A stretch of DNA of 64,000 nt from an uncultured Enhydrobacter sp. (GTDB lineage Bacteria > Pseudomonadota > Gammaproteobacteria > Pseudomonadales > Moraxellaceae): the NCBI GenBank assembly GCA_946222995.1, contig CAMIOS010000009.1:9480-73479 (forward strand), in the 5' to 3' direction. Positions 45,924 through 48,630 of the stretch are shown piece after piece. The position numbers and the translations under genes are program-made. The notes beneath the pieces are model-generated. The model had not been told where the DNA came from, ran no database searches, and worked only from the letters and a program-made list of their open reading frames with translations. Positions within the stretch are counted from its first letter, which is position 1, and each line of letters opens with the position of its first letter.

Positions 45924-46286
45924 TTATTTAGCAACCAAGCAATTTTTCGGCATTAAAAAACCTTGCCAACCAAAAAATGAGAAATTGCGAATATTGGCAT
46001 GATTGGTGCCCTTTGGTTCATCTTTAACCGCTTGATAATGTTCAGCAAATAACTTTAGAGTTGAAAGCTTATCTAGACCACATAACTGTGCTAGACCAAA
46101 AACTTTACAGCTACCTTCATTTTCGCCTGCTGCGTTATGCAGTTCGCCATTGATAAATGGCACAGGCGTATAAGTAAAATGCCGTTCAATAAACCCAAGC
46201 ACTTGCGCAAAATTGGCTGTACCTTTATCCAATTGGGTAAACAATTGCGATAATTCCCGATCTTTTAGCGAAGTAGCAGCGGGCAT
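45924..46286 (-). CDS. HopJ type III effector family protein
   Basis: 120 aa. The central block NGE..NAAGENEGSCKVFGLAQL and C-terminal GTNHANIRNF..GWQG resemble the HopJ (PF08888) family. Recognised from memory only. Confidence 0.5.
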   Translation of the reverse strand: MPAATSLKDRELSQLFTQLDKGTANFAQVLGFIERHFTYTPVPFINGELHNAAGENEGSCKVFGLAQLCGLDKLSTLKLFAEHYQAVKDEPKGTNHANIRNFSFFGWQGFLMPKNCLVAK

Positions 46287-46412
46287 TTAATTACCTTTTA
46301 TTTAATAGATCAGCCAATCTATCATGCACACATCGAGCAAGGGTTAGTGATCTAGGGGAAATTTTTAACATATTATTAAATAATATTTGACTATATTTAA
46401 CAATCTTAACTA

Positions 46413-46925
46413 TTAACGATTATAGTAATCTTCGTCAAACGGGTCGAAATTTTGATTAAAATTACTGTTGTTCTCTACACCTTGCTTATCATAGCTATGA
46501 TTAAAATTGCGATTTTCCAAATGATTCATACTGCCTGATGGCACACGCTCTGAGCCAAAACCCGAATGCGCGGCTTGCGACTGACCTGTACGCTGTATCA
46601 CTCTTGGATATCGGCGTTCTGAATTAAGACCGATTCGTTCAGGGCGCTCACTACTGTGTTCTGTCGCATAACTGCGACCTGTCTCCAAATGCCGATTGTT
46701 ATCAAAATTGCTGTAACCATAGCCGCTATTCTCGTTAGGATAGTCCGTATCTTGACCGGTTTTTTCATGCAAAATACGTTGATAAATTTCTTCGCGGTGT
46801 ACAGCAATATCTTTTGGCGCATTCACTCCCAAGCGGACTTGGTTACCTTTGACACCCAGTACGGTGACGCTTACTTCATCACCAATCATTAAGGTTTCGC
46901 CCACACGGCGAGTTAAAATTAACAT
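46413..46925 (-). CDS. csrA: Carbon storage regulator CsrA with a ~105-aa low-complexity C-terminal extension
   Basis: First 60 aa are canonical CsrA ([51 protein letters not shown]). The ORF then continues to 170 aa, rich in N/S/G/E/R/Y. lysC lies upstream, as in Pseudomonas (lysC-rsmA). Confidence 0.85.
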
Positions 46926-47346
46926 GCGTCACACTCCTTATGTCGCAACTTGTTATAGAAGTAATAGATGCTAAAAAATGAATTAAAAAATTGACGATTA
47001 AAAGCCCGTATAGATGGATAAAACTATACGTTATGCTGCCCAAATGCATAAAGAGCTTTCATACTACAATGTTTTTATCACAAAATCATCTAAAATTTCT
47101 TTAGGGTGTCGGTTATTTAATCACTTAATGCATCAAAAACCATAGAATGGTAATAGCGTGTTTCAAATATCGCTATTATATTTAAGTCATTAAACACGAA
47201 CCTATAACAACAAGTTGAGCCCAAATTTAAAATAAAAATTATTAAAAAATAGGTAGTAATTATAATGCAATTGGCAAAATAAAAAAGGCTAACCGACAGA
47301 AAAATCTATCCATTAGCCCAAATAATTGATAAAAATTACAAATGCT

Positions 47347-48630
47347 TTAGAGTCCAGCAACCTTGCTTTCACCCTCTTCACGGTCTAACCCAAATGCTGT
47401 ATGTAAAGCTTTTACCGCTTTTTCTAGACACTCTTCTTGAATCAGTACCGATACTTTGATTTCACTGGTAGAAATCATTTGGATGTTAATATTGTTTTCT
47501 GCCAATGTTTCAAACATTTTGCTTGCCACACCAGCATGTGACCGCATACCTACACCCACCAACGATACTTTAACCACATTATTATTGCCAAGCACTTCTT
47601 TACCGCCAATTTCGGCAAGATTTTTTTGTAAAATCTCAAGCGTTTTTTCATAATCACCCCGATTAACGGTAAAGGTAAAATCGGTCAATCCATGCTCTGC
47701 AATGTTTTGGATAATCATATCAATTTCGATATTCGCAGCACTTACTGGGCTTAGGATAGAGGAGGCAACCCCAGGACGGTCAGGCACTGCAAGAATTGAT
47801 ATTTTTGCTTCGTCACGGTTAAAGGCGATGCCTGAGATAATGGCTTTTTCCATGTCTTGTCCTTCGTCAGTTGTGATTAATGTGCCCACGTTGTTTTTAA
47901 AGTTATCGTCAAATTTACCATCGACATTGTCATCAAAGCTTGAGAGTACCCGAAGCGGCACTTGGTATTTGCCTGCAAACTCTACTGAACGAATTTGCAA
48001 CACTTTTGAGCCAAGCGAAGCCATCTCTAACATTTCTTCAAAGGTAATTTTATCAAGCTTTTTGGCTTTTGAGGTGACCCGCGGGTCAGTGGTATAAACC
48101 CCATCAACATCGGTATAAATTTGGCATTCATCTGCCGACAATGCCGCTGCCAATGCCACGCCTGTGGTGTCTGAACCACCACGTCCGAGTGTATTAATAT
48201 CGCCGTGGTCATCCATGCCTTGAAATCCAGCGACCACAACCACCATGCCGTTATCAAGGGCGGCACGTAATTGGGTGTCATCAATATGCTGGATACGGGC
48301 TTTGGTGTGGCTGTCATCGGTACGAATAGCGACTTGTCCGCCTGTCATGGACTTGGCATTGATACCAATTTCTTTGAGTGCCATTGCTAATAGCGAGATA
48401 GATACTTGTTCACCTGTGGACACCATTTGGTCATATTCACGGGGGTCTGGGTGCTTGCTGATTTGTTTGGCTAAATCGATAAGGCGGTTGGTTTCACCGC
48501 TCATGGCTGATACCACCACCACAATTTGATGTCCATTATCATGCCAGCGTTTGACTCGTTGTGCCACGTTTTTGATACGGTCGATACTGCCCATTGAAGT
48601 GCCGCCGTATTTTTGTACTATTAACGCCAT
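47347..48630 (-). CDS. lysC: Aspartate kinase (with ACT domains)
   Basis: MALIVQKYGGTSMGS... matches the aspartokinase N-terminus, with C-terminal tandem ACT domains. Confidence 0.9.
   Translation of the reverse strand: MALIVQKYGGTSMGSIDRIKNVAQRVKRWHDNGHQIVVVVSAMSGETNRLIDLAKQISKHPDPREYDQMVSTGEQVSISLLAMALKEIGINAKSMTGGQVAIRTDDSHTKARIQHIDDTQLRAALDNGMVVVVAGFQGMDDHGDINTLGRGGSDTTGVALAAALSADECQIYTDVDGVYTTDPRVTSKAKKLDKITFEEMLEMASLGSKVLQIRSVEFAGKYQVPLRVLSSFDDNVDGKFDDNFKNNVGTLITTDEGQDMEKAIISGIAFNRDEAKISILAVPDRPGVASSILSPVSAANIEIDMIIQNIAEHGLTDFTFTVNRGDYEKTLEILQKNLAEIGGKEVLGNNNVVKVSLVGVGMRSHAGVASKMFETLAENNINIQMISTSEIKVSVLIQEECLEKAVKALHTAFGLDREEGESKVAGL

Follow-up and report, generated by a model that had tools for sequence, protein, structure and literature searches.

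The 64,000-nucleotide stretch of DNA analyzed here (designated the window) belongs to contig CAMIOS010000009.1 of an uncultured Enhydrobacter sp. of the family Moraxellaceae. It has a GC content of 43.7% and contains a single copy of csrA, which encodes the RNA-binding regulator CsrA; a gene for hfq was not found in the window. The csrA open reading frame (ORF) begins with ATG, is uninterrupted, and specifies a protein of 170 amino acids. A prior reading of the letters alone (the sequence-only reading) proposed that the first ~60 residues of this protein are CsrA and that the remainder forms a large, disordered appendage. The features of the locus are collected in Table 1.

Several lines of evidence identify the N-terminal region as a standard CsrA domain, in agreement with that proposal. 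The Pfam CsrA model PF02599 matches amino acids 1–51 with 85.3 bits (cut-off 27), the NCBIfam CsrA equivalog NF002469 matches amino acids 1–59 with 113.3 bits (cut-off 73), and the score for TIGR00202 is 95.3 bits (cut-off 70.1). The best match among solved structures is E. coli CsrA (1Y00; amino acids 1–59, E value 2.8e-26). Through residue 54, the two proteins are ~90% identical and exhibit seven conservative differences (T19S, I32L, E39D, V40I, S41A, Q52L, and A53H). The sequence of β1 (MLILTRR) and the segment VHREEIY, which contains R44, are identical in both proteins; L2–R7 of β1 and the V40–I47 region hold the critical RNA-binding residues of CsrA. An alignment of the Moraxella homologues contains 39 invariant columns, every one of which lies within amino acids 1–51. 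CsrA proteins form an interleaved, homodimeric β-sandwich that recognizes GGA motifs, and the AlphaFold2 model of the monomer shows the expected strands in the core with a predicted local distance difference test score (pLDDT) of 78–88. R44 has been reported to be critical for RNA binding by CsrA (PMC7366521). Because lysC adjoins csrA upstream both here and in all related loci, the gene is the orthologous chromosomal copy of a Moraxella-lineage bacterium and is predicted to be functional. Thus, profiles, RNA-binding residues, and chromosomal position all place the protein in the CsrA family.

Table 1 Features of the csrA locus, with positions in the window.
Feature	Position	Strand	Evidence
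csrA coding sequence, 170 codons and TAA stop (46413-46415), followed by in-frame TAG (46410-46412)	46413..46925	-	ORF list, sequence, CsrA profiles
Shine-Dalgarno sequence AAGGAG, which contains GGA, 8 nucleotides 5' of the ATG	46934..46939	-	read off the sequence
CsrA RNA-binding core, amino acids 1-54, β1-β5 and start of helix α1	46764..46925	-	profiles, 1Y00 alignment, conservation, dN, pLDDT
Disordered low-complexity linker, amino acids 55-132	46530..46763	-	pLDDT, indel-rich alignments, dN/dS, composition
Basic patch ERRYPR within the linker, amino acids 103-108	46602..46619	-	conserved in the window's sub-clade
Motif 1, MNHLENR, amino acids 133-139	46509..46529	-	alignments; pLDDT
Asn-rich spacer, amino acids 140-154	46464..46508	-	variable length and sequence; pLDDT <50
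Acidic-aromatic C-terminal tip, amino acids 155-170	46416..46463	-	consensus, dN/dS, pLDDT
lysC-csrA intergenic region, 421 nucleotides, presumed csrA promoter and leader	46926..47346	-	ORF coordinates
lysC, aspartate kinase, upstream of csrA; synteny anchor	47347..48630	-	Pfam AA_kinase and ACT domains
HopJ-family gene, 120 amino acids, downstream of csrA	45924..46286	-	PF08888, 109.8 bits

Beyond the core, the frame remains open for ~110 additional codons. AlphaFold2, run with an alignment of 41 sequences, assigned pLDDT values below 50 to residues 53–135 and 140–152, which together make up most of the tail. Amino acids 55–170 contain 16 Asn, 13 Ser, 11 Arg, 10 Gly, 10 Glu, 8 Tyr, 7 Asp, and 6 Phe residues, while aliphatic residues account for only 9 of the 116 positions. 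The sequence-only reading was therefore correct in describing the tail as disordered and biased toward Asn, Ser, Gly, Tyr, Arg, and Glu. Not visible to that reading was that low complexity is a property of the linker but not of the end of the protein, which consists of a near-invariant acidic-aromatic tip of 16 residues preceded by motif 1.

Comparison of homologues revealed how conservation is distributed along the tail. Ser, Gly, Arg, Glu, Asn, and Tyr are abundant in the linker, which carries many in-frame insertions and deletions between species. Within it lies the basic patch ERRYPR, which has a local net charge of +3 and is found in the window protein and in homologues P0002, P0003, P0006, and P0009. 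Conservation is concentrated at two sites, residues H135 and L136 and the last 16 residues. H135 and L136 belong to motif 1, the consensus of which is M(N/S)HLEN(R/Q), and are invariant or nearly so. The tip conforms to the consensus FNxxFDPF(D/E)(D/E)DY(Y/F)NR-COOH in ~75 of the homologues listed. These same sites stand out in the AlphaFold2 model, in which pLDDT rises above 50 at residues 136–139 of motif 1 and reaches 57–68 over the last 20 residues, where a short helix (165–169) is predicted. A disordered tether with a short binding motif at its end typically gives such a profile.

The composition of the tail is conserved despite divergence in its sequence. In 88 long tails, aromatic residues average 12.7%, Arg 9.8% (standard deviation 0.9), Lys 1.0%, Asp plus Glu 15%, Asn plus Gln 18%, Gly plus Ser 16%, and aliphatic residues 6.6%; net charge ranges from -1 to -7. 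The other proteins encoded in the window contain 3.9% Arg, 5.7% Lys, 2.6% Tyr, and 27% Ile, Leu, Val, and Met combined. Amino acids 60–170 matched nothing in Pfam, NCBIfam, or the sequences of the PDB. When a profile of the last ~50 amino acids was used to search 1.84 billion representative sequences, five matches were obtained: three Moraxella CsrAs and two mis-framed fragments of csrA. Among the sequences searched, the tail module is therefore exclusive to this lineage of CsrA. An explanation for the tail at the level of RNA was also rejected. A scan of the entire 64 kb on both strands at Rfam gathering thresholds disclosed no tRNA, rRNA, riboswitch, or Csr/Rsm sponge RNA, and the region encoding the tail contains only three GGA motifs. 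Moreover, no terminator-like structure was found between csrA and the downstream hopJ gene, and the structure of this spacer is not significant (z = -1.09).

The long frame is shared by independent sequences. A 170-amino acid protein that is 99% identical to that of the window (P0001) occurs in two independent assemblies (loci L020 and L021), and relatives with 75% and 62% identity are 186 and 164 amino acids in length, respectively. Altogether, the retrieved homologues provide 103 distinct tails of 25–141 amino acids, none of which leaves the frame before the shared C-terminal motif. Selection on these sequences was estimated by the Nei-Gojobori method applied to alignments of species pairs, in which the rates of nonsynonymous (dN) and synonymous (dS) change were compared. 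In the core, dN is about 0 at dS values of 1.0–1.4. For the window and locus L016, core dN is ~0 at a dS of 1.04, while dN/dS is 0.089 for the linker and 0.073 for the whole tail. The corresponding value for the tails of M. boevrei and M. macacae is 0.070, and that for two other species pairs is 0.13; these tail ratios of 0.07–0.13 were measured at saturated dS (1.6–2.2). Between species, dN/dS of the linker falls between 0.09 and 0.14. The tip (last 16 codons) shows 0–3 nonsynonymous differences in each pair and a dN/dS of ~0 in those pairs that allowed an estimate of dS.

As a control for the reading frame, the same nucleotide alignments of the tail were shifted by one or two bases. The ratio of nonsynonymous to synonymous differences per site (pN/pS) is 0.16–0.34 in the annotated frame, compared with 1.0–2.4 and many stop codons in the other two. 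Thus, the excess of synonymous change is confined to the annotated frame. Together with the low dN/dS, this control argues that the tail is translated in the annotated frame and maintained by selection. We consider the tail to be a real, coding segment of csrA that is, as judged from these substitution patterns, under purifying selection.

The distribution of the tail was determined by scanning genomes for a tip pattern built from the last 51 amino acids. The scan, which covered GTDB representatives (the species of the window is not among them), identified 15 loci, all in Moraxella, Faucicola, or Enhydrobacter except for one evidently mislabeled "Streptomyces" contig. The best identity of these tails to that of the window is 52–54%. 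CsrA is 173 amino acids in M. boevrei, 167 in M. macacae, 157 in F. mancuniensis, 140–146 in the M. osloensis group, 136 in Moraxella sp. TY6, and 133–165 in uncultured Moraxella. The F. atlantae protein (147 amino acids) is already annotated as "carbon storage regulator." The sequence-only reading had proposed a comparison of CsrA lengths across Moraxellaceae, which yields 133–186 amino acids in the Moraxella clade (Moraxella, Faucicola, and Enhydrobacter) and 81–84 amino acids in Psychrobacter-like bacteria and Acinetobacter. Published lengths for the CsrA family average 65–75 residues, and its C-terminus has been noted to be variable (PMC7366521). The long tail is therefore far beyond the norm of the family, as the sequence-only reading maintained when it called the appendage unusual; it is standard within the Moraxella clade rather than peculiar to the genome of the window.

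The genes gst, lysC, csrA, and hopJ stand in this order at all 15 loci, and beyond them tadA and udg are encoded on the opposite strand. Compared with the window, LysC is 83–91% identical across these loci (up to 90% in genomes of the M. osloensis group), while CsrA as a whole is only ~50% identical. The csrA core is therefore the slowest-evolving piece of this conserved neighborhood, and the tail is the fastest. The contig labeled Streptomyces cinereus JCM 3040 (L014; BMPS01000008.1) matches M. osloensis-group loci in gene order and in the identity of each gene to its counterpart in the window; it almost certainly represents Moraxella contamination in the Streptomyces cinereus assembly. The intergenic region between lysC and csrA is unusually long and AT-rich and contains only weak promoter-like matches. 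It may carry a long, regulated csrA leader; the csrA gene of E. coli has a leader of this kind.

The short CsrAs of related genera point to the origin of the tail. Psychrobacter-like contigs encode CsrAs of 81–83 amino acids that end in ...HERSMQMHMSHLEQGNFAPPSFDDDDYFNR, whereas Acinetobacter CsrAs are 84 amino acids in length and end in ...HERAMHEHLQNLDQDYQPSFYNDEYNQDKYNR. In the short proteins, the tail of ~28 residues follows the pattern HERSMQxHMSHLEQGxFxPxFDDDDYFNR, in which the two motifs lie back to back; the tip of the 81–83-amino acid CsrAs is the shorter form FDDDDYFNR. Both motifs are ancestral to the family because the 81–84-amino acid CsrAs carry them. These proteins have a homologous tail with an HxHL(E/Q) motif and an acidic-aromatic ...(F/Y)NR end, and the lysC-csrA order is common to them and the window. 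In Moraxella, 50–100 disordered residues are inserted between helix α1 and motif 1. In Acinetobacter, in which CsrA has been studied experimentally in A. baumannii and A. baylyi, the tip (YNDEYNQDKYNR) is also of a more degenerate form, and the gene that comes after csrA is one other than hopJ. The Moraxella tail thus arose through expansion of the segment between helix α1 and motif 1.

Changes in the copy number of short units are visible within the linker. In the M. osloensis group, alleles encoding 146 amino acids (L006, L010, L012, and L039–L046) differ from those encoding 141 amino acids (L007–L009) by one 15-nucleotide HERTG unit directly after helix α1. HERTG is present in two or three copies in M. 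osloensis, and P0009, with its runs of NQN, and P0002, with its ER-x-Y units, show changes of the same type. This variation suggests that the linker grew by slippage or duplication. Two other unusual architectures were encountered among the homologues. The longest CsrA observed (P0087, 196 amino acids; L027 and L028) combines an Acinetobacter-like core with a 140-residue tail that is rich in Pro, Gln, Asn, and Tyr and ends in ...DDDRYSGFFNR; its loci have lysC upstream and a gene for an M61 peptidase downstream. This tail may represent an independent expansion of the linker. Two metagenomic proteins, P0004 (143 amino acids) and P0005 (167 amino acids), are tandem CsrA-CsrA fusions in which two complete domains are joined by a linker of ~20 residues and which could act as single-chain "dimers."

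We compared the window protein with CsrAs and other RNA-binding or DNA-binding proteins for which more is known. Canonical CsrA and RsmA proteins (E. coli 1Y00; Pseudomonas RsmA/RsmE 1VPZ and 2JPP) have the same core, and the window protein exceeds the curated score thresholds of the family models. Pseudomonas rsmA sits just downstream of lysC, as does csrA of the window. The canonical proteins are 61–65 amino acids in length compared with 170 for the window protein, and none of the solved CsrA structures contains an equivalent of its 115 extra residues. CsrAs of Bacillus, Geobacillus, and Campylobacter have a C-terminal extension that is bound by the protein antagonist FliW (PDB 5DMB). These proteins resemble the window protein in having a C-terminal extension, a potential protein-docking surface, and a small, co-oriented gene next to csrA. 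However, the FliW-type extension is ~20 residues in length and unrelated in sequence; the alignment with the Geobacillus protein (5DMB_D) ends at residue 56 of the window protein. In addition, fliW was not adjacent to csrA at any locus examined, where the neighbors are lysC and hopJ. The unrelated extension and the lack of a fliW neighbor at these loci rule out a CsrA of the FliW-antagonized type.

A parallel in design is provided by SSB and Hfq, which are functional analogues. The tail of SSB consists of a disordered linker and the acidic tip DDDIPF, and Hfq has an acidic C-terminal tip. As in the window protein, an oligomeric, nucleic acid-binding core is followed by a variable, compositionally biased, disordered linker and, at the very C-terminus, by an acidic-hydrophobic peptide that is conserved. 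The similarity lies in design and does not reflect common descent; the window protein gave no match to SSB above cut-offs, its Pfam and NCBIfam matches being to CsrA only, and binding of a partner or of the core by the CsrA tip is hypothetical.

We have high confidence, falling just short of certainty, in the descriptive conclusion that the protein consists of a CsrA core followed by a selected, disordered tail built by expansion of a linker. It is tempting to speculate that the tail functions as a tethered docking peptide, as suggested by the analogy with SSB and Hfq. In this model, each subunit of the CsrA dimer would contribute a flexible tether with a docking peptide at its end. The tip would bind either another protein or the basic face through which CsrA itself contacts RNA, and its docking would tune the amount of CsrA available for mRNAs that contain GGA. 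The linker would set the reach of the tip and could contribute weak, Arg- and Tyr-mediated contacts with RNA or protein. This mechanism by itself is tentative, and we judge its chances to be slightly under even. The explanation as a whole, in which a selected disordered tail and a docking tip are mounted on a standard CsrA, is the one that we favor, with modest confidence that it is correct.

Genetic studies of Acinetobacter baylyi provide independent information on the homologous short tail. Insertion of IS1236 near the C-terminus of csrA in strain ADP1 removes the C-terminal domain of the protein (PMC12442408). When the truncation was recreated, competence in stationary phase fell more than 1000-fold and growth on glucose and vanillate was altered; insertion of a cassette into csrA itself could not be achieved (PMC12442408). 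Once full-length csrA had been restored, compensatory mutations arose repeatedly in csrA (R31C among them), hfq, and rnd as the populations evolved (PMC11426457). These results indicate that in A. baylyi the short, homologous tail is important to how CsrA functions. A literature search turned up no publication that deals with the long tails of Moraxella CsrA. Database entries for such proteins already carry the CsrA name, but we came upon no earlier description of the layout of the tail, its conserved tip, the linker expansion from which it arose, or its occurrence throughout the clade.

Several observations weigh against the docking model. Both AlphaFold2 models are of monomers and cannot show docking on a dimer. 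In the model of the short-tailed homologue P0088, helix α1 extends through MSHLE at a pLDDT of 53–61 and the tip is predicted with low confidence; in the long form, confidence in the tip is moderate (pLDDT 57–68). Within the M. osloensis group, in which there are very few substitutions, dN/dS of the linker is 0.2–1.5; much of the linker may therefore be weakly constrained. The full-length CsrA product in Moraxella is itself a prediction from the gene sequence. With regard to A. baylyi, the authors of the evolution study regard mutations in the core such as R31C as recapitulating the truncation (PMC11426457), which hints that loss of the tail lowers rather than raises the activity of CsrA, contrary to a purely auto-inhibitory role. 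Finally, the genetic results do not separate an effect on protein stability from one on docking.

One alternative holds that only the tip, perhaps together with motif 1, is functional and that the linker is a largely neutral by-product of slippage or duplication that serves at most as an entropic spacer. Close relatives indeed differ widely in the length of CsrA (133, 141, 146, 157, 165, 167, 170, 173, and 186 amino acids), the copy number of HERTG, NQN, and ER-x-Y units has visibly changed, and CsrAs with short tails work with motif 1 and the tip side by side. The ratios within the M. osloensis group, mentioned above, also agree with this view. However, dN/dS of the linker between species is far from the value of ~1 that neutrality would produce, and its composition is tightly kept, above all the preference for Arg over Lys. 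The motif ERRYPR has been retained in the sub-clade of the window, none of the long-tailed lineages sampled has gone back to a short linker, and the DNA encoding the tail in the window contains no tandem repeat at present. On these grounds, we consider a neutral linker unlikely.

It is likewise improbable, to about the same degree, that the tail is a domain for self-association, similar to the prion-like domains of RNA-binding proteins in eukaryotes, that clusters CsrA into RNA-dependent condensates, with the tip acting as one more sticker. The sequence-only reading had suggested condensates as one possible role, next to an influence on dimerization or RNA binding. This proposal draws on the composition of the tail, in which few aliphatic residues, abundant Asn, Gln, Ser, and Gly, and the presence of Tyr and Arg are conserved across the 88 divergent tails, and on the excess of Arg over Lys in a genome in which Lys exceeds Arg. 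The region is predicted to be disordered, dimeric CsrA would present two tails, and the target RNAs of CsrA are multivalent. Against it, the aromatic residues are not spaced significantly more evenly than in shuffled tails. The coefficient of variation of the gaps between aromatic residues in the window-type tail is 0.66 compared with a mean of 0.81 for shuffled sequences, 25% of which are at least as even; in other tails this fraction is mostly 0.1–0.45 and falls below 0.05 in 3 of the 40 tails listed. The strongest constraint falls on the terminal peptide and the HL motif rather than the bulk of the tail, the net charge of the tail is negative, and the 28-residue tails of Psychrobacter-like bacteria and Acinetobacter keep the tip with almost no linker. 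The ancestral function therefore does not need a long region of low complexity.

The gene downstream of csrA offers a more specific candidate for a docking partner. In the window, the start of hopJ lies 126 nucleotides past the stop codon of csrA on the same strand, which makes it a candidate operon partner. The only solved relative of HopJ (PDB 2QHQ) is annotated as "unknown function." A metagenome scan anchored on HopJ yielded 80 loci. Among close HopJ relatives with sufficient upstream sequence, csrA lies directly upstream in 41 of 41 with a gap of 8–124 nucleotides, and the CsrAs at these loci, whether of the short or the long form, all end in the canonical tip. By contrast, ~30 loci of more distant HopJs with 2.5 kb of upstream sequence contain no csrA. 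Overall, a tip-bearing csrA followed by hopJ on the same strand at a distance of 8–126 nucleotides is found in the 15 Moraxella genome loci, the Psychrobacter-like locus L022, and the 41 metagenome loci; the loci with this arrangement are L001–L022 and L029–L071. Lineages with degenerate tips have other neighbors downstream; these are Moraxella sp. ZY210820 (95 amino acids, ending in ...GWNQYR), the 196-amino acid form (...DDDRYSGFFNR), and Acinetobacter.

This association would be explained if the tip were a docking site for HopJ and the two proteins formed a partner-switch or antagonist module that acts on CsrA at the level of protein, a gammaproteobacterial counterpart to the FliW-CsrA and CesT-CsrA pairs. 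In Moraxella, the expanded linker would adjust how far the tip reaches toward HopJ or the valency of their interaction, and the module would represent the first cellular function for the HopJ family. We regard this proposal as a long shot. The adjacency of csrA and hopJ can equally be explained by plain synteny within the lineage, and it can equally reflect the status of hopJ as an mRNA target of CsrA. Indeed, hopJ has been identified as a target of CsrA in Vibrio alginolyticus by electrophoretic mobility shift assay (PMC12298160).

The weakest alternative, to which we attach almost no credence, is that the long ORF is an artefact of a missed stop codon or frameshift near codon 62, a sequencing error that the sequence-only reading had raised, or of fusion of csrA to a downstream ORF: frame-shifted tails in a few database homologues indicate that errors or truncating variants do arise, but the reading is effectively refuted because the window ORF is intact and equal in length to its 99%-identical copies in independent assemblies, every complete Moraxella genome sampled encodes a CsrA of 136–173 amino acids, purifying selection acts on the tail in the annotated frame alone, and both terminal motifs are already present in the 81–84-amino acid CsrAs, so that nothing foreign has been fused. 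The frame-shifted entries (P0078 from M. atlantae, 119 amino acids; P0081–P0084, 110–115 amino acids; P0121; and P0122) carry a +1 shift at differing positions in the linker and terminate at a common out-of-frame stop. They may result from indel errors in assembly or represent natural variants that have lost the tail, as in the IS1236 truncation of A. baylyi ADP1.

The selected, disordered tail with its putative docking tip thus remains the explanation that we favor, and it bears on how CsrA is viewed. CsrA, which ranks among the most thoroughly studied global post-transcriptional regulators, is treated as a minimal RNA-binding dimer of ~7 kDa. Its activity is set by sponge RNAs, with FliW or CesT taking that role in a few lineages. 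An entire clade that includes human- and animal-associated Moraxella has tripled the size of this protein by adding a selected, disordered tail and a conserved peptide. For the Hfq of Moraxellaceae (Acinetobacter), a C-terminus of unusual length and rich in Gly has been described (Sharma et al. 2018, as cited in PMC11472050). By analogy with this extension, the CsrA tail suggests that Moraxellaceae may regulate RNA-binding hubs through tethered peptides. The tail would also account for the large effects of the C-terminal truncation of csrA in A. baylyi ADP1. The tip, motif 1, and the length of the linker provide mutable handles on the control of CsrA in Moraxellaceae. Should the tip prove to bind another protein or to promote condensation, it would constitute a new mode of CsrA control.

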